A stretch of DNA of 64,000 nt from NCBI GenBank assembly GCA_036160955.1, contig JAYYDJ010000095.1, positions 1,790 to 65,789 of the forward strand, read 5' to 3'. The first letter of the stretch is position 1. Each line of letters begins with the position of its first letter. The translations under genes were made by a program, and so were the position numbers. This document shows positions 13,150-64,000 of the stretch, piece by piece. This DNA is from Verrucomicrobiota bacterium (GTDB taxonomy: Bacteria > Verrucomicrobiota > Verrucomicrobiia > Opitutales > Coraliomargaritaceae). The notes beneath the pieces are model-generated. The model ran no database searches, was not told where the DNA came from, and was given only the letters and a program-made list of their open reading frames with translations.

Positions 13150-13184
13150 GGATAATGCAAAATATTTAATTTATTATACTCCAA

Positions 13185-13742
13185 TTACGGAGCAGATACA
13201 ATAAGTTCTAGCGAGCTGATTTCATAGCGCACATCAAGTTCTTCAGGCTTACTGCGGTTGGCTGTAATGCGCATGCTTTGTTGATTGATATAAGGAGTTT
13301 GCTGACGAAGCAATTTATTTAGTTCGATCAGTTGTTTTATGTTTATACGTTTTAATCGAACACGAATCGTGTGTTCATTAAAAATTTCACCTTCTTTTGA
13401 TCTCACTGGATCAATGTCAGCGAGATTAGAGAGCTGGCTTTGCCGTAGCAATTTATCAATCTGACCCGATAGTTGTGTTGCTGTATAAGTACGCGCTGTG
13501 TCAAGTTGTTCTTTTGCTTGTGCAGCTTCAGCGGAGTATGTGTCCGCTTGGTCTAACCAGAGTTGCTGTGTTTGTAAAATAGACGATGCTTCTTTTTTTG
13601 CGCTAATCCATTGGCCATAGCGCTTAAAACAATTGCCCGACCAAATACTCAACATAACGATTACGAAAAGTAGGGTGAGAAATTGTTCACGCAAACTCAT
13701 ACGCTTAAAATAGCCTTCTAATAATATGAGTCGTGCCTTCAT
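13185..13742 (-). CDS. GspM/PilO-like inner-membrane assembly protein
   Basis: The architecture is a single N-terminal TM, a coiled-coil and a small C-terminal domain. The call rests on its position between the gspL-like gene and the secretin gene. Confidence 0.5.
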   Translation of the reverse strand: MKARLILLEGYFKRMSLREQFLTLLFVIVMLSIWSGNCFKRYGQWISAKKEASSILQTQQLWLDQADTYSAEAAQAKEQLDTARTYTATQLSGQIDKLLRQSQLSNLADIDPVRSKEGEIFNEHTIRVRLKRINIKQLIELNKLLRQQTPYINQQSMRITANRSKPEELDVRYEISSLELIVSAP

Positions 13743-14830
13743 TCAGAGCTTACAGTAGTGTTGTCTTTTTCTGGCGTATATTCCAAAGTCATAGTGAAGG
13801 TAGTTTTTCCTGATCGCGTCAAAGACTTAGGGTCTTGTGCTAAAGAAAATTCGCCAGAGCCCTTTAGTATCTCTATGTAATTGTTAAGCTCGTTGATCGT
13901 CTGTGCAACTCCCTCAATTGTTATGTTGTTACCTAATGTTGTTGTCGTGCTAGTAAAATAGATACCTCTAGGTCTCACGGTATTAAGCGCACCTAAAATA
14001 GCGACTGGCCGTACCTCATTTTGAAACATCTGCTCTAGCTTATTAATTAAGTTGCGCTGTTCCTCTATTTTAGAGACGGCGCCAGATTGTTTAGCGATTA
14101 GATCCTCTTGCTTCGATGTCCATAAATTTATTCCCAATAAAATGCATTCAAGTGCGATAATAAATATAGCAAATATTGATGCCCAATAAAAGTATCGAGT
14201 AATACGTGCACTTATGTTGCGCCTGCTTTTTTCTCTTTTTTTATATTCTAGGCTACGCACATCAGAGCGCCAAAGTTCAAGATCGTTAGGGGTGAATATA
14301 ACATGTTCTGGAGGAGGATTTGAGTGCTCTAGTCCAGTAATTTCTTCTGAATCGCTATCACCTGTACAAGTATTTGTTGCCGTTACTACAAATTTGAAAG
14401 TGGGCAACCCAGCTTCATCTATCTCAATTTCTTTTTTTAATAAACTTAGTGCAGTACCATCATAGCTTGCTTGCACGGGAAAAGTATTTACTTCCAAAGA
14501 ATTGATATCTGGGAGTACTGCAATTTCTGGAAGTACCCAAAGGTATGATTCTAATTCCTTGTAGTAACTATTTTTTAGTCGATCACGGTGTGTTGCAAAT
14601 AAGAGTATCTTTCGTGAATTTTGGTCAAAACGAAAGCCCCAGTTTAATTGATCTATAGGAAAGGGCGAAGAGCCTTCCATGTTTAGTTCAGCAAAAGAAT
14701 CAATTTCATTTTCGTCGACTTCAATTGGTAGCTCTGTGATATCTACAAAAAACAAATCATTAGGTAGAATTATGACTTCACGGCTTATATCGCTATGCTT
14801 GATTCGTTCTTCTGCAGCAGTAATTTTCAC
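13739..14830 (-). CDS. GspL-like (PilM/PilN-like) bitopic assembly protein
   Basis: A cytoplasmic N-domain of about 190 aa is followed by one TM (YWASIFAIFIIALECILLGINLW) and a PilN-like periplasmic domain. Confidence 0.5.
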   Translation of the reverse strand: MKITAAEERIKHSDISREVIILPNDLFFVDITELPIEVDENEIDSFAELNMEGSSPFPIDQLNWGFRFDQNSRKILLFATHRDRLKNSYYKELESYLWVLPEIAVLPDINSLEVNTFPVQASYDGTALSLLKKEIEIDEAGLPTFKFVVTATNTCTGDSDSEEITGLEHSNPPPEHVIFTPNDLELWRSDVRSLEYKKREKSRRNISARITRYFYWASIFAIFIIALECILLGINLWTSKQEDLIAKQSGAVSKIEEQRNLINKLEQMFQNEVRPVAILGALNTVRPRGIYFTSTTTTLGNNITIEGVAQTINELNNYIEILKGSGEFSLAQDPKSLTRSGKTTFTMTLEYTPEKDNTTVSSE

Positions 14831-14860
14831 AAGAATTATTTCTATTATTAGTGAAGCGTT

Positions 14861-15961
14861 TTATTGCAGGATGTCTACAGCTGAATATCGCGCAGATTCT
14901 TGCTTTACAATATGTGATTCGTATTCGCTTATTTGAATAATCTTAAATGGATATTGGATAGCATCTTGTTCTTCTAGAGTGCCAGTTTTTGAAATTTGTT
15001 CATTGCTAGTGCTTGGCAGTGAGCGGTTTGATGAGCTTGAGCTAAAATTAGGTTCCACTAAGGCGCTAAGTGTCATTGGAACCGAGCCGCGCGTCACTCT
15101 TATAGTCACTCGAAGTAAGCTAATTTCAGTGGTGAATAGATCGCCTCCTAGAAAATCTGGGAGCTCTTCAAACCATGGCCTATTTAGTAGTTGATCAAAT
15201 ATTCGATCTGGATCCCAAGATTGATTTTCACTGAGTGCTGAAAGTAAGTCGCTAGAGACGGAATTAATATTTACTGGGCCTTTTATGGATACAGAAAATA
15301 GTTTATCCAATTGTTCAAATTTTCGATTAGGGAATCCGTTCTCATCAAAAAACTCATCTTGCCAAACTTTAATTAAGCGTAGCTCATTAAGTGATTGTAG
15401 CGGACTGTTAGCCGCTCGATAGGGTGGGTCCTCGTCTAGGTAATGTTCACTTTCCGCTCCGTTGAGGCGTTGATCCCCATCAATATCTATCCAGTCGGCT
15501 AAGGTACTAGTTAGTTCTCTGGTAGTGCCGTAATCGATTTCAAAGGTATCTTCAAGGATTCGATTTAAAGTTGGTTCATCGATTAAGTTTATCGGTAAGC
15601 GTGCACTTTCATCAGTAATATTAATGGATATAGAGCACCCATCTAGCGGTTTTTCTTGAGCATAGTACAGCGGGTCTGCCCAACCCTGTTCGGGAGCGTA
15701 TAATTTGCCCCCATCAATGAGTGCCACTTCATGAATGGTTGCTAAAGAGAGCTCTAGCAGACTGTATGCATAGGCTCGTATTTCTGGACTTTGATTAAAT
15801 AAAGTTCGGTATTTGAGATCGTCTACCGCTTCATCAACAAAGCGTGTTACCAAATATGCAAGGAGCGCAATAATAGCGAGAATGGCGACTAGTATACTGC
15901 CATTATTTTTACGGTTTATGGATACGTTTAGCCTGCCTTTTCTGTGAGGGTATTGGTACAC
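14861..15961 (-). CDS. gspK: Minor pseudopilin GspK
   Basis: It has an N-terminal hydrophobic helix. GspK hallmarks are present: ITDESARLPIN, DWIDIDGD..., YRAANSPLQSLNELRLI. Confidence 0.8.
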   Translation of the reverse strand: MYQYPHRKGRLNVSINRKNNGSILVAILAIIALLAYLVTRFVDEAVDDLKYRTLFNQSPEIRAYAYSLLELSLATIHEVALIDGGKLYAPEQGWADPLYYAQEKPLDGCSISINITDESARLPINLIDEPTLNRILEDTFEIDYGTTRELTSTLADWIDIDGDQRLNGAESEHYLDEDPPYRAANSPLQSLNELRLIKVWQDEFFDENGFPNRKFEQLDKLFSVSIKGPVNINSVSSDLLSALSENQSWDPDRIFDQLLNRPWFEELPDFLGGDLFTTEISLLRVTIRVTRGSVPMTLSALVEPNFSSSSSNRSLPSTSNEQISKTGTLEEQDAIQYPFKIIQISEYESHIVKQESARYSAVDILQ

Positions 15962-15969
15962 TTTTTGAA

Positions 15970-16860
15970 TTAAAAAAGAATTGTGCTGTATGAAGTGACT
16001 GGGATTGTGAGAGTACGCATTTTTATTTCATTTTCATAAACAAAAGATAGCTGAATAGCTCTAGGTAAGAGATATTCTCGATTAGTAGAGTTTTCTCCTT
16101 CTTTAGGTTTTTTCTCAATTTCCCACTTTTCAAAGCTTGAATCCCAATAGACGTACTCTAGTGATTTTACGTAAGGACTTATTAAAGTTCGCCTTAAATC
16201 TTCGACAGTTTCAGTTTTCTCCTGAAGGACTGAATGCCACAACACGCTCAAGCCCTTGGAGGAATCAAAAAATAGGTATACCTCGACTTGATCTAGGCTA
16301 GGTTGGGCGCTTTCAGAAACAAATAGCGGAGGGGTGTAGTTAAGTTTAAAATGTAGTAATGGCTCTTGGTAGTTAGGGGATCCTGGTAGTTTCTCCCATA
16401 TTATTGGTGTAGAATCTCTATTTCTTAAGCTGGTTTCATATGTCATTAAGCCTCTAGAATTAGAATCATATCTGAGATTTTCTTGCGGATCTTTTTTTCG
16501 GCCAGCAATATACGTATCGTTTTGCTCAGACGGAATTTCTGAGGTACTTAGAATATTTATCTCTGCACCATTTTGTTGCTGCTTAAATGAATTTTTGTTA
16601 TCATTTAATTTAATGTGGTTCCCAGCTGATAGTAGCATAACATTAATAAATTCAGTGACTCCATCCACGTGATCTTCGAAAAAATTTCGCTGCGATCGCT
16701 CCGCCCATATATTGCTAATGGATACAACAAAAGAGGTGGCAGCAGTCAGTAAAAACCCTGCTACAGCGAGTGCTAGTACGACTTCTATCAAGGTCATTCC
16801 GCTACGAGAAAGAGACCTTTTTATGGGTAAAAATTTGTTACTATGGCTGCATCGAAACAT
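15970..16860 (-). CDS. gspJ: Minor pseudopilin (GspJ-like)
   Basis: It has a prepilin-type N-terminus, GMTLIEVVLALAVAGFLL. The call rests on its size and its position between the gspI-like gene and gspK. Confidence 0.55.
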   Translation of the reverse strand: MFRCSHSNKFLPIKRSLSRSGMTLIEVVLALAVAGFLLTAATSFVVSISNIWAERSQRNFFEDHVDGVTEFINVMLLSAGNHIKLNDNKNSFKQQQNGAEINILSTSEIPSEQNDTYIAGRKKDPQENLRYDSNSRGLMTYETSLRNRDSTPIIWEKLPGSPNYQEPLLHFKLNYTPPLFVSESAQPSLDQVEVYLFFDSSKGLSVLWHSVLQEKTETVEDLRRTLISPYVKSLEYVYWDSSFEKWEIEKKPKEGENSTNREYLLPRAIQLSFVYENEIKMRTLTIPVTSYSTILF

Positions 16861-17339
16861 TATTCAAAATCTCGAGAATTCATAAGCTCTCGTCTTTTAG
16901 TTACAAGTAAGTCGCTGCGCTCATCACTCTTAGACCAAGTCGGGCGTAGTAAATACAGTGACTCCAGATAGTTCTCATCAGTGCCTTCAATGGGGTCACT
17001 AAAATTTATTTCGAACAGGACTTTAAACAAGTCGATAATTTGAGATTCTTCGATCGAGCACCTCCATGTAGCAAGACCAGAATGAAGAGTTTCGAAATCA
17101 CCACCATCTTCTGCATCGTCCCTATTTTCTTCTAGTAGTAATTGTAGGCGTACCGCACGAATATCATCGGTACGCAGCGAATTGTTTTGACCATGTTCGC
17201 GCGCAAGTAGTGCATTTACAAAGGCTGAAGTAAGAACGATGGAAGCGGCTGCGAAGAGTGCAACTGCGACCACAACTTCAATAAGTGAGAATCCATGACG
17301 ATTTTTAGATATAGATTCGTTTGATTTTTTGGCTGTCAT
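16860..17339 (-). CDS. gspI: Minor pseudopilin (GspI-like)
   Basis: It has a prepilin-type N-terminus, HGFSLIEVVVAVALFAAASIVL. The protein is small and its position fits. Confidence 0.55.
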   Translation of the reverse strand: MTAKKSNESISKNRHGFSLIEVVVAVALFAAASIVLTSAFVNALLAREHGQNNSLRTDDIRAVRLQLLLEENRDDAEDGGDFETLHSGLATWRCSIEESQIIDLFKVLFEINFSDPIEGTDENYLESLYLLRPTWSKSDERSDLLVTKRRELMNSRDFE

Positions 17340-17866
17340 GGAGAGGATACCTTTCGCAAGCTGGAAAATGGATCATAAACATGTCTTTTGCTAGTGCCTT
17401 CACCTTCATCGATCTCGACAACAAATGGTGTCGAACTTCGGTCAGGTGCAAATTGTACAGCTGCTATTTGGCTACGGCTTTGAACTGGATCCACAATGGG
17501 CGACATGCCTTCAGAAGATAAAACCGAATAAAACACAATACTGCCACGTCCATTTTCTCTGAATACTTCATCTAATTGGAATTGGACTAGGGTATTATTA
17601 CCGGAGCTTAGAACGAGTTGCCCTGTTTGATCATCATAATAGAGGACAATGATTTTTTTTGTGCTTGCTGCTAAGTAGCGACCTTCACGAATAGAAGCAT
17701 CTAAAATGTCGACCGTACTTAAGCTATCACCTTTATTAGCGAATGCAGCGAAATTATAAATCACAATACTACTCGCCACTGCCATCAGCGCTAAAACCAA
17801 TAGAATCTCAATTAAGCTAAAAGCGCTTAATTTTTGGATTCGTTTATTTCCAATTGCCGATATCAT
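17336..17866 (-). CDS. gspH: Minor pseudopilin (GspH-like)
   Basis: It has a prepilin-type N-terminus, [21 protein letters not shown] prefer the Met33 start at 17866 over the ORF-track start at 17962, which would overlap gspG by 119 nt. Confidence 0.55.
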
Positions 17867-18308
17867 CGGCGCTTTCACTGCCATCTGGACCGAACGACCA
17901 TACATCATAGCCGCTGCTGCCGTTAACATTTTTGGATCCCGGATAACGATACTGATAGGCATTTCCCCATGGGTCTGTGGGTAGTTCCTCTATGTATGGC
18001 TTCTTCCACTTACTTGATTTACCGCTTGGAGCCTGTATTAGCGCTTTAAGACCTTCTTCTGTGCTAGGATAACTTCCGATGTCAATTTTGTATGCAGTCA
18101 GAGGAATCTTCAATGATTGGCTAACAAAAATTTGTGCGGCCTTTTCTTGTTGACCACCAAATATGCCACCTAAGTTACTGATAGCCAGTCCTGCAATAAC
18201 TGCGATTAACGCAATTACTATGAGGATTTCAATCAAGCTGAAGCCGCCTTTACGGTTAGCTTTTCTTAGTAGATTTGTTTTCAATACGTATAGCATAATT
18301 AGGGACAA
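17844..18308 (-). CDS. gspG: Major pseudopilin GspG
   Basis: Shows [22 protein letters not shown], then ...[12 protein letters not shown]..., ...[13 protein letters not shown]... and ...DVWSFGPDG..., the classical GspG pattern. Confidence 0.88.
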
Positions 18309-22470: not shown

Positions 22471-24774
22471 ATGAGTGCTTTTATTTTGCGCCGTTTACTT
22501 AGCCTGATCCCTTTATTATTGGGCACGAGCCTGCTCGTCTCGATATTAATGTATCTTTCGCCAGGAGATTTTCTGACGCAAGCTCGCGCGGCTCGCGATA
22601 TCCCGCAGGAAGTCATTGAGCAGCAGGAGCGCCAGCTTGGGCTCATTGATGAAAGTGGAGCGCCAACTCGCTGGTTTGTGCGCTATGGTCACTGGATCGC
22701 AAATATTGCGCCGATTAAATATGGACCTTGGGTCGGGGCTCCAGAAAAAGGTCTGCACCTTGGCTGGCCGTATTTTGGAGAATCATGGACTTATCAAGTG
22801 GAAGTATTTAGTTTACTAAAACAGCGAGTCCCTGCGACCTTTATTTTATCGCTGACCTCGATAACCTTTGCATGGTTTATAGCTATACCCTTGGGAGTTC
22901 TTGCAGCACTCTATAAAGACTCGATCTTTGATCGCTTCTCTGCGCTACTTGCATATGCCGCGCTATCGATCCCTGAGTTTTTTTTGGCGATTTTAGCGGT
23001 GTACTTTGCCTCCATCACTGGACTCTTCCCTGAGGGCGGTCGATCATCGGTAGAGAGTGACTTTTATCCATGGGCGCTGCAGTGGGTGGATTATGCCTAC
23101 CATCTAATTTTGCCCACTCTGGTTTTAGGCGTTGGCAGTGTGGCTGGTATGATGCGTATCATGCGCGCTAACTTCATCGACTATATGCGCGCAGAATTTG
23201 CGACTACCGCGCGGGCGAAGGGTTTGCGCGAGCGAGTGATCATGTTTCAGCACGTACTGCGCAATGCTATCAACCCACTTATAACCTCTTTTGGGTATTC
23301 CTTTGCGAGTCTTTTATCAGGAGCTTTACTAGTCGAAAATGTGATGAACTACCCAGGTCTAGGACAACTAATTTTTGATGCGCTGACTCGTGAAGATCAG
23401 TATGTCGTTATGGCAGGGGTGATGATTGGTGTAGTCATGTTAGTCCTGGGTAATTTAGTTGCCGATTTAATGCTCGCATGGGCGGACCCTCGTATTCGCA
23501 ATGCGCAGACCGTTAGTTCAACTAGCGTTGGCTTTGGAAAGACTACTTGTGTATGGACTGTCCTGCTTGCAGTGATAGCGGCGGAAATTTTACTAGAAGT
23601 GTTTGCTCCATCTTTACTGATAAAGATTGTAGTCGGGCTTAAATACATTGGCATTATGCTTGCAGGGTTGCTAGCCGTGGCATGCGTCGCATTGGTCGGC
23701 TATATTGTTTATGTCCTCTTTAAGCGCTTGATGGGTCAAGTGTTGCGCCGCCCGCTCGGCGCTACAGCCCTTGTTATATTGGGAGTACTATACAGTGCCG
23801 CCTTACTGGCTCCTTGCCTAGCGCCTTACTCGATAACAGAACAAAATTTGGATAAGGCTTATCACCCACCGATAGGCTTTGTTTGGAAGGAGGGCGGCTT
23901 ACATGCGAAGCTCTACGCTAAGAAATCACTGGGTTCTCCCTTATACGAAGCGACTGGAGAGACGACGCCTGTAAAGCTCTTCGCAAAGACTGATCCTTAT
24001 TACTTGTGGGGCATTATTCCGATGCATCGCACGCTGTTCTCGCTGGATGCCTCTGTGCCAAATGCGCGGCTATATTTACTTGGTTCAGATGATACGGGCA
24101 GGGATATTTTTAGCCGATTGTTATATGGTTCAAGGATTTCACTTTCGATTGGGTTTATTGGAATATCGATTACCCTGATCCTTGGTTTTATTGTCGGTTC
24201 GCTTGCAGGTTACTATGGTGGAACTGTCGACTTTTTTGCTATGCGCTTTGTGGAGCTCTTAATGTCGATCCCCGCGCTTTATCTACTGCTCGCTCTTCGC
24301 TCGGCATTAATTAGCCCAGAGCTTTCCCCCGGTCAGGTCTATATGATTATCGTGGTGCTGCTATCGATTATAGGATGGGCGGGCACAGCGAGAATTATTC
24401 GTGGTATGACTCTTTCGATTCGCAATCGCTCATATGTACTTGCTGCAGAAAGTTTGGGCCAATCACTTCCTAAAATTCTTATCAAGCATATTTTGCCAAA
24501 TCTTGCTAGTTATCTACTAGTCGCAGCGACTTTATCCATACCCGGCTATATATTAGCAGAAGCCGCGCTTTCCTTTCTAGGGCTTGGCATTTCTGAGCCT
24601 TCCGCCTCGTGGGGACTTATGCTTAAACAATCGCAGGGTAACATGATCGTATTTTTTATGAATTTTTGGTGGATGCTTGTTCCTGGTTTCGCAATTTTTA
24701 TTACCGTGATCGCTTACAATGTACTTGGTGATACATTGCGTGATTGTGTGGACCCTAAGATGCAAGTGCGGTAA
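22471..24774 (+). CDS. Fused DppB-like + DppC-like ABC permease in a single 767-aa polypeptide
   Basis: The N-terminal half begins FILRRLLSLIPLLLG...SPGDF, has the EAA loop ARAKGLRERV and ends ...WADPRIR. An extra hydrophobic linker follows. The second half begins LRRPLGATALVILG...LAPY and carries LGSDDTGRDIFSRLLYGSRISL and an EAA-like loop. Confidence 0.88.
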   Translation: MSAFILRRLLSLIPLLLGTSLLVSILMYLSPGDFLTQARAARDIPQEVIEQQERQLGLIDESGAPTRWFVRYGHWIANIAPIKYGPWVGAPEKGLHLGWPYFGESWTYQVEVFSLLKQRVPATFILSLTSITFAWFIAIPLGVLAALYKDSIFDRFSALLAYAALSIPEFFLAILAVYFASITGLFPEGGRSSVESDFYPWALQWVDYAYHLILPTLVLGVGSVAGMMRIMRANFIDYMRAEFATTARAKGLRERVIMFQHVLRNAINPLITSFGYSFASLLSGALLVENVMNYPGLGQLIFDALTREDQYVVMAGVMIGVVMLVLGNLVADLMLAWADPRIRNAQTVSSTSVGFGKTTCVWTVLLAVIAAEILLEVFAPSLLIKIVVGLKYIGIMLAGLLAVACVALVGYIVYVLFKRLMGQVLRRPLGATALVILGVLYSAALLAPCLAPYSITEQNLDKAYHPPIGFVWKEGGLHAKLYAKKSLGSPLYEATGETTPVKLFAKTDPYYLWGIIPMHRTLFSLDASVPNARLYLLGSDDTGRDIFSRLLYGSRISLSIGFIGISITLILGFIVGSLAGYYGGTVDFFAMRFVELLMSIPALYLLLALRSALISPELSPGQVYMIIVVLLSIIGWAGTARIIRGMTLSIRNRSYVLAAESLGQSLPKILIKHILPNLASYLLVAATLSIPGYILAEAALSFLGLGISEPSASWGLMLKQSQGNMIVFFMNFWWMLVPGFAIFITVIAYNVLGDTLRDCVDPKMQVR

Positions 24775-29098: not shown

Positions 29099-30283
29099 GT
29101 GCACATTCCAAACAGGCAATCAGCGCTAGATGCGCTTCATCGATTCCTTCCACATGCAGGGAAAAATTATGCGTCGAGAAGAAATTATGTTAGTGCTTTA
29201 AGTACTGGCGCTAATGTTTCTGGTCTCTCGCCCTGGGTAAGAACGCGATTATTACAAGAGTGGGAAATTATTAATCATGTTCTTGATCACCATAGCGCTG
29301 GCGCCGCTAGCAAGTTTATAGACGAAGTGTGTTGGCGCACTTATTGGAAGGGTTGGTTACAGCTTCGCCCATCCGTTTGGGGACATTATTTAGCAGAGCT
29401 GAATCAAGCGCGTGAGGTATCTTTTATGGATCCTTGTTATCAAGCAGTAATTGCTGGGAAAAGTGGAGTTGAGTGCATTGATGAGTGGACTCAGGAGCTT
29501 CAGCAGACTGGGTATTTACACAACCACGTGCGGATGTGGTACGCGAGTATTTGGATCCATACGCTAAAGCTTCCGTGGGTCTTAGGTGCTGATCTATTTA
29601 TGCAATATTTACTCGATGGTGACCCCGCGAGTAATACTCTTAGCTGGCGCTGGGTTGCCGGATTGCACACGGAAGGAAAGACTTATCTTGCGCGTCCAGA
29701 TAATATTCGAAAATACACCCAAGGTCGCTTCGAAGTTAAAGAGAGATTAGCGACCAAAGCGATTATTACCAAGCCCTTTCTAAGGCATAAGCCATGCAGT
29801 CTACCAAACTTAGGACCTCCTCCACAAAAAAATTCACGCGTAGGTGTACTTTTACAAGAAGATGATGTGTGTGCGCTCAATTGGTTGGTTACGAATCAAG
29901 ATAAAGCTGATATTCATATAGCTGGCTACTATTCACCGGCAGTGTATACGATAAATAAAATTGCTCCTATGGTGTCGCGGTTTCGCCAAGAATCGTTACG
30001 TTCAGTACTCCAAAATGACCATCCGATGTTTAAAGATGTTTATTCTTTGAGCAACTGGGTAGTAACGAATCAATTAGATACCGTGCTTATGGCTGAAGTT
30101 CCAACTGGAATGTGGGATTCGATAATACAAGATCTTAAAACTGCTATTGAAGCGCAAGGAGTGAAGTTATCCATGCAGCGTTGTCCCTGGGATGCCCATT
30201 TTTACCCTTTAGCCACAGCTGGATTCTTCCGCTTTAAGCAAGGTATACCTGCGGCGCTTGATTTAATCGTATCGTCTTCTTAA
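29099..30283 (+). CDS. Photolyase/cryptochrome FAD-binding-domain protein with no N-terminal photolyase domain and an unrelated C-terminal domain
   Basis: The ORF has a GTG start. It carries [31 protein letters not shown] and [18 protein letters not shown], which are hallmarks of the photolyase helical FAD domain. An uncharacterised C-terminal region of about 170 aa follows. Confidence 0.7.
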
Positions 30284-31711
30284 ATTTGTCGGTAGAATAC
30301 CCAACTCTTCTCGGTATTTAGCTACTGTGCGGCGCGCAATTTTTATCTCTTTCTCTTTTAATAGATCGACTATTTTTTGGTCAGAGTGGGGTTTAGCGGT
30401 ATTTTCTTCCTCAATTAGATGTGCGATCATATCTTTAATTGATTTATTCGATACGGATTCTCCGCTACTCGAGGTGAAGCCAGGGGTAAAAAAGTATTTG
30501 AAAGCAAACACACCATGTGGTGAGCGCATATATTTATTTGCAATAGCACGCGATACAGTCGTTTCATGCACATCTACGGTCTGCGCAATTGTGTTCATCG
30601 TTAGTGGTCTTAACTTTGCGATTCCGTGCTCAAAAAAGTCGGACTGGAAAGATAGAATTTCGCGGGTAATACGCTCGATGGTTTGTTGGCGCTGCTCAAT
30701 GGAATTAATCAGGAATTTCCCTGATCGCATGCGCTCAAGCATAAAGTCTTTTTCTTTTTTACTGAGGGTTCCTTTAGCAAGCATTTCTTTATAGACTCCG
30801 CTTATTCTTAAGCGGGGTATATAGTCATTGTTAAGTAGCACTTGCCATTTTCCGTAATCATCTTTAAAAACAGTTACGTCTGGTTCTATAACAGTATTAC
30901 TGTCAGCGCTGAATCTCTTTCCAGGAGCAGGATCTAGGGTCGCGATCTCTTCAATAGCAGTTTGTATATCGTCGGTTGTAGTACCTGTCTTACGCGATAG
31001 TTCAGGTATACGTCGGCGTATGAGAAGCTTGAAATAATCTCGTATAATACGCGCAGCGACCGAGTTGCCGCGCCCATTTAATTCTAACTGCGTAATTAAG
31101 CAGTCTTGCATATTATTTGTGCCGATCCCAGGAGGGTCGAATGATTTTAATAAAGCTGCTGCGCTTTGAACTGCGCTGTAGGAAACGCGACTAGTGAGGG
31201 CTACATTCGATAAAGTTTCCGTCAAGAAGCCGCTCTCGTTAAGGCTACCAATTAAGTAGGTGAGGGCTTCTCTCTGCTCGTCCGTACAGTCAGCTAAGTC
31301 AGCTTGCTCGATTAGGTGTTGTTGGAGTGAAACTCCAACAGTGAGCGAGTTCATAAAATGTTCTCGCCGCTCAGCTACTTCGTTTGTGACAAGTGAAGGA
31401 GTATTTTCTTGGGCAAATTGCTCGCGCACATCTTCACTCATTCGCTCAAGAATACTATAGTCTTCAGCATCAAAATCTAACTCTTTCTCAGGTTCTGGCT
31501 CACTTACATCTGGTTCGCTGATGCGCTCCTCAACACTAATACTATCTATAGATAGCTCTTCGAGTAGCGGATTCGCCTGTAATTCCTCTAAAATAGCGGT
31601 TCGTAGATCTACTGCTGGCGCTTGCAGTATTTTCAGAGAATTTCTTAACTGCGGCGCTAGTACAAGCGATTGAGTTTGCTTTTGTGATTGTTGAAATTCG
31701 AGCGCGCACAT
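30263..31711 (-). CDS. rpoN: RNA polymerase sigma-54
   Basis: The N-terminal region I reads [15 protein letters not shown]. The core-binding region is present, and the C-terminal RpoN box is [11 protein letters not shown] prefer the Met at 31711 as the start. The 3' end overlaps the convergent gene by 21 nt. Confidence 0.92.
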
Positions 31712-31927
31712 AGTTTCTACAAAGTCTATGGATAGCTGGTTGACTTGAGTATTTTTTGAGCAATTGTTGCAAAAAACCAATCTTCAGAATAAATAAAAAT
31801 CATTAACAATGATGTCTGCAAGGTGTTTTTTATTTAATCTAGCATGATAATTGCTTTTGTTTATCTTATTTTTTTATGTTCGTATGTATAATTTGACACT
31901 CGATATTTCCTAGTTTTTTTTGTTTGA

Positions 31928-52775: not shown

Positions 52776-53897
52776 TTGCAGTTTACGAATGCATTACAAT
52801 GTTCACTGTTGATGCCGATGTTTATGTGTCAAGTGGATAGGCGGTTTGTAGTGCTCGTTAGAGTATTCTTATTGATTAGCTGGTTTTGCTTACTGACTAT
52901 TCCTTTCAAACTAGTTGCAAATAGTGAGGAAATCCCACCAATGGGGCCACTTGGTCTAGTTTGGGAGACTCAGCTAAGTGTGAATGGTGGATATATGAAA
53001 GAAGTGGAAGCACTTCTAGCTGCTTATGAAGCGGCTGTAGAAAAAAAAATAAATCCAATTTCGCGTAATAAGGTTGGTCTTAAGGTCAATACCCGCGGCG
53101 GCAGAGGACTATCGACTCAATTAAACCTATTACGTAGTGTTATCGCGGCGCTAGTCAAGAGAGGGTTTACTCGCGAAAATATATTAATTGTTGATTTTTC
53201 AGAACATAAACTACGACAGGCAGGAATTTTGCCTTTGCTAGGTGATTCAGGAGCTCAATTTGATGGTTGTCCAGTGCTGGCTTTAGACAGCGGAAAATAT
53301 TTTGATGTAGACTGGTTTTATGATAGCCCATTACCGCCTGTAATGGAGCGAAAATCACAATTTTTCGATTATTCAAAAGTTCCAAGCCCGAGAAAAATTA
53401 GTTTGGAAAAGCGTAAGAGCTATTTACCTATGCCGTTATTATTTGATGTAGATTTCTGGTTAAATATTGCTACTGGAGTCGATGATCCAGCGCTTGGTGT
53501 TGATGGCGCACTTGCCAATGCTACATTATGGAATGTGAGCAACAGTCAGCGTTTTTTAGTAAACCAAGCGACTGCATCTGCGGCTGTAGCTGAAATAGCT
53601 GCGATTCCTGAATTGCGCGAACGCATGATTTTACATATCATGTCTATGGAATGTTATCAGTTTATTGCAGGACCGTTTTTTAATTCTATTTATACTCGCA
53701 ATGAGCAATGCCTTCGTTTGAGCAGTGATCCGATAGCTTTGGATCGATTACTATTCGATCGTATCAATGAATTAAGGCTTTGGGAAGGCTTTCCTCAAAT
53801 TGATACATTGCCAAGGCAGTTCCCTTTTGCTGCAAGTTTAGGCATGGGAATATTTGAGCGATCAGCAATTCGGGTTCATGTAATTCAATCACCATAA
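52776..53897 (+). CDS. DUF362-like protein
   Basis: The segment KVGLKVNTRGGRGLSTQLNLLRSVIAALVKRGFTRENILIVD matches the N-terminal pattern of DUF362 proteins. The ORF-track start is TTG, and a Met at about 52812 is more likely. Confidence 0.45.
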   Translation: MQFTNALQCSLLMPMFMCQVDRRFVVLVRVFLLISWFCLLTIPFKLVANSEEIPPMGPLGLVWETQLSVNGGYMKEVEALLAAYEAAVEKKINPISRNKVGLKVNTRGGRGLSTQLNLLRSVIAALVKRGFTRENILIVDFSEHKLRQAGILPLLGDSGAQFDGCPVLALDSGKYFDVDWFYDSPLPPVMERKSQFFDYSKVPSPRKISLEKRKSYLPMPLLFDVDFWLNIATGVDDPALGVDGALANATLWNVSNSQRFLVNQATASAAVAEIAAIPELRERMILHIMSMECYQFIAGPFFNSIYTRNEQCLRLSSDPIALDRLLFDRINELRLWEGFPQIDTLPRQFPFAASLGMGIFERSAIRVHVIQSP

Positions 53898-53913: not shown

Positions 53914-54348
53914 TTGAATTTAATTGAGACGAATGCACTTGAAATAAAGCTAAAATATCGTGTCATGTTTTTTATGAGTGTTGCTGATTATTATCCTATT
54001 TTAATTCAATTTTGTTTGGCAATGAGCGTTGGTATTTTGGTGCTTGCTGTATCCCATATTTTTGGTCAACGCGGTACAGCTTCTGACATAAAAAATTCCC
54101 CCTATGAATGTGGTATGCTTGCTGCGGGATCGAGTCATGCGCGTTTTGCTGTAAAATTTTATGTGACTGCTATGTTGTTTATACTTTTTGATATTGAAGT
54201 AGTATTTTTGATACCATGGGTATTAGTCTTCCGCGAATTTCTTGCTGCACAATTACCCATATTAATGCCTATCTTCTTTTTTCTATTTGTGCTTATTATA
54301 GGTTTTATCTATGAAATTAAAAAAGGTGCGATAGAGTGGGAGAAGTAG
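53914..54348 (+). CDS. nuoA: NADH:quinone oxidoreductase subunit A
   Basis: Shows NSPYECGM, FDIEVVFLIPW and three TM segments. The real start is probably an internal Met (MFFMSV...). Confidence 0.8.
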   Translation: MNLIETNALEIKLKYRVMFFMSVADYYPILIQFCLAMSVGILVLAVSHIFGQRGTASDIKNSPYECGMLAAGSSHARFAVKFYVTAMLFILFDIEVVFLIPWVLVFREFLAAQLPILMPIFFFLFVLIIGFIYEIKKGAIEWEK

Positions 54349-54480: not shown

Positions 54481-55836
54481 ATGCGTATCGACCGTTATAT
54501 CGCTAAAAATCGAGTCATTGATTTAAAAAGCACTAATTTTAAGAGCGATTTATCGGAATTTTTGGTTGTTTGTGACTTAAGTAGTGAAAGGTCGCTTAAT
54601 AAAAAACGTCTACACTCAGAACTTATTTTTCGAGAGAAGCAAATGACTACTTATTTAGGCAATGGAGTTTGCTTGCCTCACGCACGTGTCAAAATGCAAC
54701 GCAGTTATATGATTGCGGTAGGACGCTGTCCGAATGGATTAGAGTATGATGGCCAAGAAGAGTACAATAATATCCGCTATGTTTTTCTACTTTTAGCAGC
54801 TAATAATGCTAGAAATTATCTTTATAGTTTAGCCTCTCTTGCTAGAGTATTCCAGAATGTTTCTCAGATGCAGCGGCTAGAACTCTCTGGATCACTAAAA
54901 GAGTTTCGGGACACACTTAAAACTGTATTTGGGGGCGAGGGAGGACAGCTTCCTCATCGCCATAATCGATTTAATAATTTAATTCTTAAAGAGGCAGCTA
55001 AAATTGCTCAAGGCTCAAATTGTACTTCTGTCTTGATATTTGGAGATACATTTGGAGGTGGTATTGAATTAGGGAATACTTTTAAGAATTTCAAGACAGT
55101 TCTCATTGCACAAGGTACATCTGATGGCTTAATTGGGCGCAATAATATTGCGGCAACACTACCACTCAGGGCATTTAGTAATAATCGATTTTCTCAACTC
55201 CGTAGCGCAGTGCTTATTGGTCTGACGCGAGGTATCTTTTCAAGCAAAGATCGCATTTGTTGCGTCGGTGGTTTGCCTCAAAGTAATCAGTTCGATAGCA
55301 TCACAGTTGTTGATGTAGAACGCGAATTTCATACTATGTTATTTCGTAAATCAGAGATGCTTCCATCTGCAGTGGAACCAGAAGTGATCGAGCGTGTTTT
55401 AGCAATTGCTACCGAACTTGCTGTTGAGGGTAGGGAAGGTCGTCCTATTGGCTGTCTTTTTGTGCTTGGTGATGCCGAACTTATTTCTAAATACACCAAG
55501 CCACTGATATTAAATCCTTTTCATGGATACAAGGACGAGGATCGAAATATTTTGAATCCATTTATGGATGAGACGGTTAAAGAGCTATCATCTATTGACG
55601 GAGCTTTCATCATTCGTGGAGATGGTGCCTTAGTGTCGGCAGGATCATTGATCCACGCGCCGGATTATAATCATGATCTTCCGAGTGGTTTGGGCAGTCG
55701 TCATGCTGCTGCTGCTGCTATTACTCAAGCAGTTGATTGTTTATGCATTGTTGTATCTGGAAGTTCTAGTCAGGTGACTTTATTTCGTCAGGGAGAAATG
55801 CTGCCACTGATTGAGAAAACGTTATTAAAAAAATAA
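54481..55836 (+). CDS. Multidomain protein: PtsN-type PTS EIIA domain + PK_C-like middle domain + DisA_N/diadenylate cyclase domain
   Basis: The N-terminus is colinear with E. coli PtsN (REKQMTTYLGNGVCLPHARV, with the His retained, and IRYVFLLLAANN). The C-terminus carries the DAC hallmarks IDGAFIIRGDG (D373) and GLGSRHAAAAAIT (R407-H408). Confidence 0.7.
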   Translation: MRIDRYIAKNRVIDLKSTNFKSDLSEFLVVCDLSSERSLNKKRLHSELIFREKQMTTYLGNGVCLPHARVKMQRSYMIAVGRCPNGLEYDGQEEYNNIRYVFLLLAANNARNYLYSLASLARVFQNVSQMQRLELSGSLKEFRDTLKTVFGGEGGQLPHRHNRFNNLILKEAAKIAQGSNCTSVLIFGDTFGGGIELGNTFKNFKTVLIAQGTSDGLIGRNNIAATLPLRAFSNNRFSQLRSAVLIGLTRGIFSSKDRICCVGGLPQSNQFDSITVVDVEREFHTMLFRKSEMLPSAVEPEVIERVLAIATELAVEGREGRPIGCLFVLGDAELISKYTKPLILNPFHGYKDEDRNILNPFMDETVKELSSIDGAFIIRGDGALVSAGSLIHAPDYNHDLPSGLGSRHAAAAAITQAVDCLCIVVSGSSSQVTLFRQGEMLPLIEKTLLKK

Positions 55837-56976
55837 TTATATTTCACGAGAGCCTTTGTAAATGCGGGTAACTCGCTTGGTAATAGAGCATAATGATTCC
55901 CAAGCATGACTGCCTGCAGATTGACTAAATTCATTAAGACTAATAGACTGTGCTAGGTTTTTTCCAATAATGATGGCAACGTCACCTGCAGTTACTTCTC
56001 GTATATCGGTGACATCCACGATTGTTTGGTCCATAGTAACACGTCCAATAATAGGGCAGCGTTTTCCGCGAATAAGTACCGCTCCTTTGTTGCTTAGCGA
56101 AAGCGGGATACCATCCCCATAGCCAGCGGTGAGTACTGCGATACGCGAGTCTCGCTTGAGTTGATAAGTACGACCATAACTAATATCGGTTTGTCTGGGT
56201 AATTCTTTTATCAGTCCAACTCGTGCGTAGAAGCTAAGTACTGGTTCTACGTGCACATGACCTAGGGCAGACTTTGGATAAGGTAGTACTCCGAACTGCA
56301 GAAGTCCGACTCGGACTGCGTTAAATGGGTTCGTTTCATTAAGCGATTGTAGACTTGAGGAATTATCTGCGTGAATGAATAGTCCTCTCATTGGCACTGA
56401 CTTTAAAACTTTAATCAGTCGATCACGCTGTAAATTAGTAAACTGAGCATCACAATCAGCACTTGAGAAATGAGTGTAAATTCCCTGGAGATTTAAGTGG
56501 GGTAGAGATTGTATAGTTTGCAGCAATTGTATCGCTTGCGTATGCCATACTCCCAAGCGACCCATGCCTGTATCGACTTTTAAGTGTACTTTGAGCTGTG
56601 ATTGATTCGCTTCGGATAGCTCGTTTAACCATCTTGCTTCATCCGATGTACTGATAGTCGCTGTTAGGTCATTTTCAATTAATTGAATAGCCTCTTCAGG
56701 AAGAACAGGGCTTAGAATTAATATTGGCCATCCGGTACCCATATGGCGAATATCCGAAGCTTCTTTGACATTAGCTACTGCAAAAGCATCGACTCCGCTT
56801 TGCATGAGTCGGCTAACTATTTGTGGCATTCCATGGCCATAGGCATCTGCTTTGACTACAGCTAGATAGCGCATCTTTTTTGGCATTGCAGCTTGAATAC
56901 CTTTAATATTTCTTTCAAAAGCGGCTAAATTAATTTCAGCCCAGCAACGCAGCTGCTTTTGGTGGTCTCTCATCAT
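55837..56976 (-). CDS. alr: Alanine racemase
   Basis: Shows [10 protein letters not shown] (PLP Lys) and ...GRVTMDQ... motifs. Confidence 0.9.
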
Positions 56977-60509: not shown

Positions 60510-61523
60510 CTACATGTAGTATCGAATGTAAGCTTTGCTACGTAAGTTTTCAATCCAGCGTCTTTGGTTTTCACGCGCTATTTCTCCGACAAGAACCTCT
60601 TCTATTGCATCTCTAACTTGCGATACTGGTTGAATCATCTCTTCCCGCTTTGCTTCGCAGTAAAGAACGAAAATAGTGCCGCCTAACTCGACTGGATCGC
60701 TGTATTGGCCTGGATCTAATTTAAATGCGATTGCGCTAAGCTCCTCACGAATATCGGACCGTTTGATCCAGCCCCAATCTCCACCTCGACGGCTCATGTT
60801 ATCCTGACTGTATTTACGCGCAAGGTCACCAAAATTTGCCCCGTCTTGCAGTTCTTTGATAACTTGGTTTGCTGTTTGACGAAGCGGTGCTAGTCCTTCG
60901 TCAGCAAGCGGGGTTAGAATAATCTGGCGCAGGTGCAAGGCTTCTTCTTGGTAAAAGCGGATCTTGTTTTTGACATAAAAATCTTCAATTCGCTCAGGAC
61001 TTATTTCCGATTGTGATTTGCGGTTTTCTTGACGCATAGCATTAACCGCGACGCGGCGGTAAATTTCTTTGCGGAATTCTCGTGGCGTTTCACCTTTTTG
61101 TTTTAAGTATTCAAGGAATTTACTACGATCGCCTCCGAAGTCACGGGCGATGGTTTCGTTATATTCTTGATCGATGTATGATTCAGGTATCATCAGTCCT
61201 TTATCTTCGGCAGCTTTAAGTATGACGATACGATCGATCATATTTTGCAGAACATCACGACTGAGTTTGTCAATAAGCTGGTTAAAATCAGATTCACTTT
61301 TAGCTTCTAAGCGAATACGCGGTATGATAGGCTCTAATTCTCCTCGCAATTCTTCTAAAGTTATGATTTGTCCTTCTGCTATTGCAGCAATTCCATTACT
61401 AAGGCGCATTATGGATCGGTCCTGTTTAGTGCTTTCACGTACGGCTTTACCCAGAAGATTGGTGCCTTGGTAGATAAGACCAAAAATTGCTAGAATAATT
61501 TTAAATTTACGAAGTAGCATCAT
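60510..61523 (-). CDS. SurA/PrsA-like peptidyl-prolyl isomerase (parvulin domain)
   Basis: A signal/anchor and a SurA_N-like helical region are followed by a parvulin core (HLRQIIL...GGDWGWI...). Confidence 0.75.
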
Positions 61524-64000
61524 GAATCTATGCGGTGTTTAAGGAATATGTTAATCTCCTTTAACCTTAGAAGTGGATCTTCGGCGGTCAAGCGGGGAAA
61601 ACGACTGCCGATCTTTAGGAATTCTCGATCTTTCTTTGGATTAGCATATCGACAGATAAGTCGCTCCTTTTCACTTTCTACTCTTCGAACTCCTGCTAAT
61701 TCAGCAGAAATACGTATTTCACATAGTTCGATTAGTGCATCGACTGCAACTGGTCTTTTACCAAAACGATCTTCAATCTCATCAGAAATACTGCGAATTT
61801 TTTGTGAATCTTCTGCTAGAGCTAAGCGTCTATAAATGTCTATTCTTAATCGCGGCTCTGTGATATAATTTATTGGTAAGCTCGCATCAATTATTCTGTT
61901 AAGGGATGTATACTCGGCTTCTTTTATTGCAGCAAAGCTAGCAGTTCCACTAGTGCTTCTCGAGGCTCCTCCACCTTCACCGCTGGCAATAAAGTCTAGC
62001 TTTACCTCTGCTCTTATTCGATCTGCTCCTGGTTCTCCTTTTAGACGAGCTACACTTTGTTTTAGAAGTTGGCAGTATAACTCGAATCCAACACCAGCAA
62101 TATGACCACTTTGTTGGGCACCGAGTAAATTGCCAGCTCCACGTAATTCTAAATCACGCATAGCAATTCGGAATCCAGCGCCTAGTTGATTATGCTGTTT
62201 GAGTGCATGCAGGCGTTTCTGCGCTTGATTATTTAAGGTAGCATGTCTATCCATTAGCAAATAGGCATATGCTTGTTGCTTGAATCGGCCTACGCGTCCT
62301 CTTATTTGGTATAACTGTGCCAATCCGAATCTATCCGCTCCTTCTATTATTAATGTATTACAGTTTGGAATATCGATACCCGACTCAATGATTGTCGTGC
62401 AAACAAGAACATCGAATTGTCCTGCCACAAACTCAGTCATCACTTTTTCTAAAGCGTTACTCTCCATTTGGCCGTGACCCACCGCTACTTTAATTGTAGG
62501 AAGCATATCTCTAATTTGCTGGGCTACTGCATCAATAGTAGTGACTTTATTGTGTAGATAGAAAACTTGGCCATTACGTTTCGTTTCAAATTCTATAGCT
62601 TGTTTGACAAGTTCTGGATCGTAACTTTTTACAATAGTTTTTATTGGGCGACGGTTTATAGGAGCTGTTTCAATAACACTCATCGAACGAGCGCCAGAAA
62701 GCGCTAAATATAGAGTGCGAGGAATAGGCGTCGCACTAAGTGTAAGTATGTCTACCTCCGCCCGTAGTTGTTTGATTGAATCCTTTTGTTTGACCCCAAA
62801 TCTTTGTTCTTCATCCACGATTAGGAGGCCAAGATTTTGAAAATGGACGTCTTTACTTAGAAGTCGGTGGGTGCCTACAACAATGTCAATCTTGCCTGCA
62901 GCTAATTGAGCCAAAGATTGTCTATTTTCTTTCGTAGTGTGAAAACGGCTGACTTGTTCAATGATAACAGGAAAGTCACTCATTCGCTCGCGCAATGTAT
63001 TATAGTGCTGTTGGCAAAGCACTGTAGTGGGGGCGAGTAAAGCGACTTGCTTACCCGCAAGCACTGCCTTTAGTGCTGCGCGAATCGCCACTTCAGTCTT
63101 ACCAAAGCCTACATCTCCACAAATTAAGCGATCCATTGGAGTGGGTTTCTCCATGTCCTGCTTGGTTTGATGAATTGCAGTTAGTTGATCTGGCGTTTCT
63201 GAAAAAGTAAAGGCATCTTCAAAGTTTTTCTGCCAAGGAGAATCCGGTGGAAAGGCATAGCCAGTGGACTGATCGCGGCGCGCGTGCAAGTTAAGTAATT
63301 CAGCAGCGTAATCTAAAGTTGCGATTTCAGCTGCTCTTCTAGTTTTATCCCATGTGGATCCTCCAATCTTACCAAGCTTAGGAGAGGATTTTGTTAAGCC
63401 AACATATCGAGTTAGTAGATGCGATTCATGTAAAGGTACATGGATTGTCATATTGGCTGCAAATTCTACTGAAATAACTTCCTTAGTTCCGCCCTGTATT
63501 TTAAGCTTTGTTAAGCCGTGAAAAAGGCAGATTCCATGTTGGAGGTGCACTAAAAGATCGCCATCTGCAAGCTCGCTGAAATCAAGTAACTGATCGACTT
63601 GAGAAATACTTGACCGTGGGCTTACTCTTCGGGTTTGGTGCCTAAGTTTTTGGTCATTAAAAAATTCATGATCACAGATCAATACGAATCCTTTATGGTT
63701 TGATTCTGGAAATATATTTGGCTTATATTTGGATTTATCAGTGTTGCGATATAAAAACCCAGCGCTCAAAGAACCAATTAAAAATGTTGGTTTGAGCTTA
63801 GCAGTTACTGGATTCATAGATAAGGATTTTCGGATACTTTCTATCTCATCTTGACCACTACAAACGAACGCAATAGCAAGATTTTCTAGCTTAGCCCAAT
63901 TCGCAACTTGATTTTCAAATCGGGTTAGAGAATCTTGTTTAATTACAAAGTAGTTATCTCCCTTATTATATACATCATTTTGGTGGCGGTAGTAGGCGGT
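61520..64000 (-). CDS. mfd: Transcription-repair coupling factor, N-terminally truncated by the window edge
   Basis: It has a CarD-like domain and the SF2 helicase motifs [29 protein letters not shown] and RGRVGR, plus TRG and C-terminal domains. Hand translation upstream of the ORF-track Met (63817) shows no stop codon up to position 64000, so the gene continues beyond the window. Confidence 0.92.

Follow-up and report, generated by a model that had tools for sequence, protein, structure and literature searches.

How a bacterium decides when to make cyclic di-AMP (c-di-AMP) is a question that most of its synthases leave without an obvious answer. No part of c-di-AMP signalling is less well understood than the control of diadenylate cyclases (DACs), and most DAC classes have no known input signal. 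The locus considered here raises the question of whether a cyclase might carry a candidate input within its own polypeptide. It lies in a 64-kb stretch of a contig from a Verrucomicrobiota bacterium (hereafter the window, meaning the whole stretch of DNA that was analysed), where a complete gene with an ATG start, here called dac, occupies positions 54481..55836 of the forward strand and encodes a protein of 451 amino acids (aa). This protein is composed of an enzyme IIA domain of the EIIA-2 family, a middle domain (DacZ_P) that resembles the C-terminal domain of pyruvate kinase (PK_C), and a DAC domain. The initial annotation, made from the sequence alone, had described it as a putative c-di-AMP synthase wired to a sensor domain of the phosphotransferase system (PTS), and had suggested that the arrangement may be new. 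As argued below, the window protein is very probably a functional member of an EIIA-DacZ_P-DAC family, and it is predicted to be a cytoplasmic diadenylate cyclase of the DacZ lineage, belonging to a subclass that is distinguished by the additional EIIA domain at its N-terminus.

Domain anatomy and catalytic motifs

The product of dac is identical to the NCBI protein MEC8650726.1, which is named 'MAG: diadenylate cyclase [Verrucomicrobiota bacterium]' (MAG, metagenome-assembled genome), and the start codon is right, as homologues align with the protein from residue 1. A mis-started gene or a fusion artefact was considered as well and ruled out by the hundreds of full-length homologues that are collinear with it from that residue. 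Pfam matches were judged against the curated cut-offs, and all three domains exceed theirs. In order along the protein these are PTS_EIIA_2 at residues 31-147 (the Pfam envelope, the fold itself extending over about residues 1-152; 54571..54921, + strand; E 8e-19, 68.5 bits against a cut-off of 27), DacZ_P at residues 162-285 (54964..55335, +; E 6e-18, 65.2 bits against 27.4), and the catalytic DAC (DisA_N) domain, of DacZ type, at residues 314-439 (55420..55797, +; E 2e-20, 73.2 bits against 27). An AlphaFold2 (AF2) model of the whole protein, built with 80 homologues, had a mean predicted local distance difference test score (pLDDT) of 83.4 and a predicted template modelling score (pTM) of 0.60, and a Foldseek search of the PDB with this model returned IIA-Ntr proteins for the N-terminus and CdaA, DacA, DisA and DacM for the C-terminus. 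The fusion of a c-di-AMP synthase to an EIIA domain is thus upheld by three Pfam domains above cut-off and by a matching predicted fold, including the significant DisA_N match on which that proposal depended, and His67, Asp373-Gly-Ala and Arg407-His408 were all located at the positions first given for them.

The DAC match spans profile positions 3-118 of 119. Within it, Asp373-Gly374-Ala375 (the DGA motif; 55597..55605, +) aligns with D171-G-A of Listeria monocytogenes CdaA, and Arg407-His408-Ala409 (55699..55707, +) is the counterpart of the RHR motif, with phmmer placing GSRHA of the window protein opposite GTRHR of the Listeria enzyme. Conservation was followed in two sets of sequences, a distant one of 83 full-length representatives of 50% clusters sharing 27-50% identity with the query (the count for His67 being taken over 84), and a close one consisting of the 120 closest homologues, at 73-100% identity. 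Thirteen residues of the domain, G317, E319, G324, N345, P346, E368, D373, G374, G403, G405, R407, H408 and S426, are invariant in the 83 representatives, and both DGA and R-H-A are found in 120/120 of the close set. Among the closest homologues the DAC domain is also the most conserved part of the protein: its mean identity (87% across 116 Opitutales homologues) exceeds that of DacZ_P (76%) and that of the EIIA domain (69%).

It could be argued that such a domain is catalytically dead and that the protein serves as a nucleotide sensor or scaffold, given that it has RHA in place of RHR and a Gly at position 427, which aligns with Glu223 of L. monocytogenes CdaA and where most relatives carry Glu or Gln. 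This scenario is highly improbable in our view, as DGA and R407-H408 are invariant within the best conserved part of the protein and as position 409 is variable in the DacZ-like clade, where activity is on record. Among the three-domain proteins residue 409 is Ala in 46, Thr in 14, Gln in 7 and Arg in 6, and it is equally variable in DacZ-like proteins of about 300 aa that have two domains; across the two groups His and Val occur as well. Since the variation extends across the whole DacZ-like clade, RHA would be ordinary for this lineage and no sign of damage, so that the alignment does not bear out the concern that RHA might be incompatible with cyclase activity. Cyclase activity has been shown for DacZ of Haloferax volcanii and for CdaZ of Methanocaldococcus jannaschii (PMC6741144), although the argument that these two enzymes lend to an active RHA is an indirect one. 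With the DGA and R-H motifs intact and under strong conservation, the catalytic domain of the window protein is apparently competent for c-di-AMP synthesis.

Among the DAC models of NCBIfam the best match was to haloarchaeal DacZ (NF041371; 122.8 bits over profile positions 55-262 of 270), and the models for CdaA, DisA, CdaM and CdaS reached about 26-29 bits each (CdaA 29 bits against a cut-off of 188.8), in agreement with the DacZ type proposed at the outset. To judge from these scores, the window protein and DacZ are related but not orthologous. When bona fide haloarchaeal DacZ was sought among the acidic 300-aa representatives, none was found at the equivalog cut-off (111-153 bits against 430). 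In H. volcanii DacZ and in M. jannaschii CdaZ (DacY) the PK_C-like domain is directly N-terminal to the DAC domain, as it is here, but those proteins are archaeal, whereas the window protein is bacterial, carries an extra EIIA domain of 150 aa and scores far under the 430-bit cut-off. The comparison with CdaA (DacA) is instructive in a different respect. Both proteins have the same catalytic fold and the same DGA and RH motifs, and in both activity is thought to be set via the productive DAC dimer; CdaA, however, is anchored to the membrane by three N-terminal helices and regulated in trans by the adjacently encoded CdaR and GlmM, whereas the window protein has no transmembrane helices, a soluble EIIA N-terminus and its regulatory modules in cis. 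As the initial annotation had stated, it has no cdaR or glmM neighbours either, since no gene for a YbbR protein or a phosphoglucosamine mutase is present in the 64-kb window.

The middle domain, a putative metabolite-binding and/or dimerisation module, has a dedicated Pfam model (DacZ_P, PF21755). A profile built from 23 sequences of this domain and run against the PDB sequences retrieved almost exclusively pyruvate-kinase C-domains, with E-values starting at 1e-3. When the domain was modelled alone with AF2 (pLDDT 79.5, pTM 0.75), all of the top 50 Foldseek matches in the PDB were pyruvate kinases, with template modelling (TM) scores of 0.6-0.7 and superpositions at a root-mean-square deviation of 2.6-3 A over about 120 columns. 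The modelled fold of DacZ_P is that of the C-terminal allosteric domain of pyruvate kinase. The Pfam model, the sequence profile and the fold search therefore agree on the PK_C-like module that had been suspected in this part of the protein.

The EIIA domain as a candidate input

The predicted phospho-acceptor of the EIIA domain is His67 (codon 54679..54681, +), which stands in the motif A-(I/L)-P-H and in the context ...GNGVCLPHARV..., and which aligns with the PH of PtsN. In a phmmer search of the PDB sequences, REKQMTTYLGNGVCLPHARVK of the window protein was aligned with RERLGSTGLGEGVAIPHGRIK of Burkholderia PtsN (4gqx, E 5e-5), and by Foldseek the EIIA fold is closest to IIA-Ntr of Neisseria meningitidis, Burkholderia pseudomallei and Escherichia coli, with target TM scores of 0.80-0.84 (2a0j, 0.84). 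His67 is strongly kept across the family, as the initial annotation would have led one to expect, being present in 79/84 of the distant representatives, in 120/120 of the closest homologues and in 80/80 of a mixed set of sequences. Arg51, Glu52 and Pro66 are invariant or nearly so alongside it, and R51, E52, A64 and P66 are each at least 90% conserved among the full-length 50%-cluster representatives.

How finely the domain can be classified is a separate matter. The label 'PtsN-type' that was first attached to it stands insofar as IIA-Ntr is the best match in the PDB by both sequence and fold, and fails insofar as the PtsN equivalog is missed and the fructose-EIIA model scores slightly higher; the structural matches suggest the label, and the domain is assignable to the EIIA-2 family and no finer. 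The fructose-EIIA model in question, TIGR00848, is the best EIIA match in NCBIfam at 38.3 bits, and together with the name 'PTS sugar transporter subunit IIA', which NCBI's automatic annotation has given to many homologues, it might suggest that the protein is a true enzyme IIA of a sugar PTS. We consider this to be wrong almost beyond doubt: the 38.3 bits fall far short of the 103.5-bit cut-off, genes for EIIB or EIIC are absent from the window and from the flanks of the homologues, and a DacZ-type cyclase accounts for two thirds of the protein. The name reflects a pipeline choosing one domain.

Two known systems help to place this domain. PtsN, about 160 aa long, exists as a free protein, is usually encoded with rpoN and acts by binding targets such as TrkA and KdpD. 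The window EIIA domain has the same fold as PtsN and a His in the same A-I-P-H context, but it forms a single polypeptide with its presumed target, is encoded away from rpoN (30263-31780) and, in the subclade to which it belongs, has Tyr for the second His. In regulators with PTS regulation domains (PRDs), of the MtlR, LicR and ManR type, an EIIA-Mtl-like domain serves as a regulatory phospho-acceptor fused to an effector and not in sugar transport, which makes these regulators the precedent for a fusion of this kind. The output of the PRD regulators is DNA binding or antitermination and their donors are HPr and the cognate EIIB/EIIA of a sugar PTS, whereas here a nucleotide cyclase would provide the output and there is no evident sugar PTS. 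EIIA-Ntr and the window EIIA domain have in common that both are regulatory and not involved in transport, with a likely link to K+ homeostasis (PMC13104625).

The reading that we favour, and which as a whole we hold to be moderately probable, is that a carrier of the HPr or NPr type phosphorylates His67 and that this modification, acting jointly with a metabolite ligand of the PK_C-like domain, gates c-di-AMP synthesis. In the DACs that have been studied, catalysis needs two DAC domains face to face, and the known regulators act on that dimer. In the window protein, likewise, two C-terminal DAC domains would meet head to head and convert 2 ATP to c-di-AMP, and the two N-terminal modules would set whether, and how often, the productive DAC dimer forms. 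His67 would be reversibly phosphorylated through a relay running from phosphoenolpyruvate (PEP) to enzyme I (EI) and on to HPr or NPr, and would report the PEP/pyruvate or the carbon/nitrogen state, while the PK_C-like domain would bind a phosphorylated metabolite and/or dimerise, as in pyruvate kinase. The c-di-AMP so produced would act on K+ and osmolyte homeostasis, with phosphorylated His67 either activating or inhibiting the enzyme; in proteobacteria, free EIIA-Ntr has direct control over this same homeostasis, which is also its best-conserved output (PMC13104625). As to the single step on which the relay turns, we put the chance that phosphorylation of His67 is a real input at about even.

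A phosphodonor was sought with three HPr/NPr queries (E. coli HPr, E. coli NPr and Bacillus subtilis HPr), and neither tblastn with these queries against the window and 80 genome loci nor a hidden Markov model (HMM) of the three sequences against all open reading frames (ORFs) of 85 loci gave a match. The rpoN gene for sigma-54 in the window (30263-31780, -) lacks the hpf, ptsN, hprK/rapZ and ptsO neighbours that usually accompany it in proteobacteria, and over about 20 nucleotides (nt) its 3' end overlaps with a photolyase-like gene of the opposite strand. In a spirochaete MAG (GCA_964397655.1), a stand-alone PTS_EIIA_2 gene of 148 aa (locus L083, 16208-16654, -) lies about 5 kb from the EIIA-DAC gene, which indicates that free EIIA-2 proteins coexist with the EIIA-DAC fusion in that spirochaete lineage. 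According to a 2026 review, genes of the nitrogen PTS (PTS-Ntr) have been reported in Spirochaetales, Planctomycetales and Chlamydiales, and K+ homeostasis is a unifying output of that system (PMC13104625). From this distribution and from the free spirochaete gene, a phosphodonor for the EIIA-DAC proteins is plausible.

A number of observations weigh against the favoured reading and should be considered together. No gene for EI, HPr/NPr or HprK turned up in the 64-kb window or in the roughly 1.3 Mb of DNA that flanks the homologous loci. Position 113, which corresponds to the second active-site His of EIIA-Mtl and EIIA-Ntr, is Tyr in 120/120 close homologues (it is His in 55/83 distant members), and the PtsN equivalog TIGR01419 scores 32.8 bits, far under its cut-off of 138.7. 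On the cyclase side, position 427 is Gly in 119/120 close homologues, and the DacZ equivalog cut-off of 430 bits is missed at 122.8. In the AF2 model of the whole protein two linkers, residues 153-160 and 213-219, and only these, are of low confidence, and with a pTM of 0.60 the contacts between domains in that model are not reliable. Finally, a literature search found no experimental or enzymatic work on any member with the EIIA-DacZ_P-DAC arrangement.

Some of the same facts could be accommodated if the EIIA-like domain were a regulatory or docking module that works independently of phosphorylation, with control exerted by a metabolite bound to the PK_C-like domain or by protein partners. 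We think this unlikely, at perhaps a quarter of the weight, and the case for it draws on the want of PTS partner genes in the window and in the flanks of the 85 homologous loci, on the replacement of the second catalytic His by Tyr throughout the Opitutales subclade, on the lack of His67 in 5/84 diverse representatives, and on PtsN and FruA equivalog scores that are far under the cut-offs. It has also been noted that no PtsN target is known as a phosphoacceptor and that PtsN seems to act by binding (PMC13104625). On the other hand, R51, E52, P66 and H67 have been kept although the sequences are only 27-35% identical in this region, which is the pattern expected of a working phosphoryl-transfer site and not of a scaffold. 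Moreover, the missing PTS neighbours carry little weight, because PTS genes are usually unlinked to their regulatory targets.

A large family and its name

The suggestion that the architecture may be new did not hold. A word-indexed homologue search gave 2988 matches and a profile search 2891, so that proteins of the same architecture number in the thousands in the databases. The best 120 of the 2988 all carry precomputed PF00359, PF21755 and PF02457 assignments (some of the proteins in the profile search are without a DacZ_P call); their names include 'diadenylate cyclase', 'PTS sugar transporter subunit IIA' and, from the Joint Genome Institute (JGI), 'DisA.../mannitol/fructose-specific PTS IIA component (Ntr-type)', and their sources are Coraliomargarita, Lentimonas, Puniceicoccaceae and Opitutaceae. 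When 1.84 billion representatives of 50% clusters were searched exhaustively, 2238 matched at E<=1e-3 and 267 at E<=1e-30, with 83 of the best 150 of the 2238 being full length.

The window protein is 73-80% identical to proteins of Coraliomargarita, Lentimonas and Puniceicoccaceae. An orthologue at 53% identity is found in the cultured Opitutus terrae PB90-1 (CP001032.1), and the complete genome of Coraliomargarita algicola (CP138858.1) also contains the gene. More distantly, the profile search recovered a member at 39% identity labelled Verrucomicrobiia and a branch at 30-35% identity labelled Spirochaetia, Spirochaetales or Spirochaetota. The 80 loci returned from GTDB species genomes all belong to the class Opitutia, except for two with odd bin labels (L004 and L080), in which an Opitutia-type gene occurs in MAGs labelled 'Polaribacter sp.' and 'uncultured Enterobacteriaceae'; mis-binning of the contigs is a more probable explanation than a true occurrence in those taxa.

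The family also appears to have a name. Corrigan and Gründling are said to have defined in 2013 a DacD class by its PTS_EIIA_2 domain, and DacZ_P was reportedly defined by Galperin in 2023 while such architectures were being catalogued. The bacterial class 'DacD' is listed, after Corrigan and Gründling 2013, by Braun et al. 2019, with five representatives from Lacunisphaera, Puniceicoccaceae, Coraliomargarita, 'Verrucomicrobia' and 'Opitutae' (PMC6741144). The taxa listed there are those of the 80 genome loci of this family, and the window protein, with PTS_EIIA_2 N-terminal to a DacZ-type cyclase, probably does not differ from DacD at all. On the strength of this match in taxa and of the domain by which the class was reportedly defined, the EIIA-carrying subclass of the DacZ lineage is apparently the DacD class. 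The window gene is thus a typical representative of a large family that has been annotated and, apparently, named. The initial annotation had allowed that the architecture might already be a named and characterised one; named it apparently is, but no experimental study was found that would make it characterised. Full-text searches combining diadenylate cyclase with EIIA, DacZ_P or Verrucomicrobia, or c-di-AMP with nuoA, returned nothing relevant, c-di-AMP is absent from the 2026 PTS-Ntr review, and neither a PTS nor a nuoA connection was found in the literature searched.

The nuoA-dac pair and its surroundings

In the searched literature a description was missing for one element only, the conserved operon that nuoA and dac make up in Opitutia, in all likelihood with unk373 as a further gene (unk373-nuoA-dac). 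The gene order around dac in the window is rpoD (-), dnaG (-), a gene for a tetratricopeptide repeat (TPR) protein (-), a gene for a 373-aa protein (+), nuoA (+), dac (+), alr (-), tsaB (-), menD (+) and menB (+). The nuoA gene (53914..54348, +; Pfam Oxidored_q4, E 6e-30) encodes subunit A/ND3 of complex I, and the gene upstream of it (52776..53897, +) a protein with a hydrophobic N-terminal segment and no match in Pfam, NCBIfam or the PDB sequences. The position of dac between nuoA and alr, with no other nuo genes near nuoA, was confirmed in the window; the description of dac as an isolated unit was not, in that nuoA lies directly upstream of dac on the same strand in 67/74 Opitutia loci with enough upstream DNA. 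The complete O. terrae and C. algicola genomes have this order too. The spacers between the two genes range from 1 to 174 nt, with a median of 55 and with many of 1-45 nt, and a comparison of the nuoA-dac spacers of close relatives revealed no conserved element common to them. The gene for the 373-aa protein, which in the window ends 17 nt before nuoA, precedes nuoA in 48/80 Opitutia loci and may be the first gene of the operon. Downstream of dac the gene varies among Opitutia loci, and alr (55837-56976, -), which in the window adjoins dac and is convergent to it, was rejected as a conserved partner, being close to dac in only 2/80 loci. To judge from gene order and spacing, nuoA and dac probably form a conserved, co-transcribed operon in Opitutia. 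In this they differ from some archaeal dacZ genes, which are in an operon with the gene for an MscS channel (Braun 2019, PMC6741144).

One might ask, then, whether the input comes from this partner, that is, whether NuoA or complex I recruits or regulates the cyclase and so ties c-di-AMP to the respiratory or ion-motive state, either besides the PTS input or replacing it. The constancy of nuoA upstream, set against varying genes downstream, and the short gaps between nuoA and dac in many loci would fit such an arrangement. It would also fit that this nuoA is detached from the other nuo genes, none of which occurs in the 64-kb window or within 10 kb of nuoA in O. terrae (L081, 9460-9885) or C. 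algicola (L085, 9524-9898), and that the window nuoA reaches none of the NuoA equivalog cut-offs in NCBIfam (at best 80 bits, where 145 are required). Such a detached nuoA may be either the sole copy in these genomes or a specialised paralogue. Nevertheless, we regard it as improbable. The linkage to nuoA is absent from the three-domain homologues of Verrucomicrobiia and Spirochaetota and has been lost in seven Opitutia loci, L001 (the closest) among them, and because it is missing in those homologues the cyclase does not need it. The PYECG and FDIE signatures have been kept in NuoA, which may be the organism's only nuoA, and gene order can stay conserved without physical interaction. Returning to the His67 relay, the more specific version, in which a PTS-type phosphorelay directly switches c-di-AMP synthesis via His67 and in which, in Opitutia, co-transcription with nuoA adds a link to complex I, is put forward tentatively, with the balance tipped somewhat against it.

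Other elements that might be associated with c-di-AMP were looked for in the same DNA. No DHH or HD phosphodiesterases and no RCK_C proteins are annotated in the 64-kb window, no Rfam family, including the c-di-AMP riboswitch, was detected anywhere in it, nor any tRNA, and promoter and terminator scans around dac gave background level only. The RCK_C (TrkA_C) domain is of a type that binds c-di-AMP in other bacteria. In the O. terrae locus (CP001032.1; L081, 1407-3740), a CPA2 cation/proton antiporter with a TrkA_C domain is encoded 6-8 kb upstream of the DAC gene; this antiporter has no counterpart in the window.

The remainder of the window contains several features that are unrelated to the cyclase. 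The ORF for Mfd, the transcription-repair coupling factor (61520-63817, -), is only 765 aa long and is matched by TIGR00580 from profile position 273 on, so that its N-terminal UvrB-homology module is either missing or separately encoded past 63817, near the end of the window. A 767-aa ORF (22471-24774, +) in an ATP-binding cassette (ABC) operon of the Opp type contains two BPD_transp_1 domains and OppC_N and is an apparent OppB-OppC fusion. Finally, a cluster resembling those for type II secretion or type IV pili (10885-18308, -) includes genes for a secretin, a PilN-like protein, a type II secretion protein K and an N-methylated pseudopilin, along with several ORFs without a family match.

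This returns us to the question of how such a cyclase might be controlled. The sequence of the EIIA-DacZ_P-DAC family itself offers a candidate input, in the form of an EIIA phospho-site and of a domain like the allosteric domain of pyruvate kinase. If a phosphorelay of the PTS type does act through His67, it would give the diadenylate cyclases their first demonstrated input by histidine phosphorylation, and two governors of K+ and osmotic balance, PTS-Ntr in proteobacteria and c-di-AMP elsewhere, would be joined in one polypeptide. Opitutia are abundant degraders of polysaccharides in marine and soil environments. Should phosphorylation of His67 or a glycolytic effector prove to switch c-di-AMP synthesis, the carbon/nitrogen status of these bacteria, and of some spirochaetes, would be connected to the control of K+ and osmolytes.

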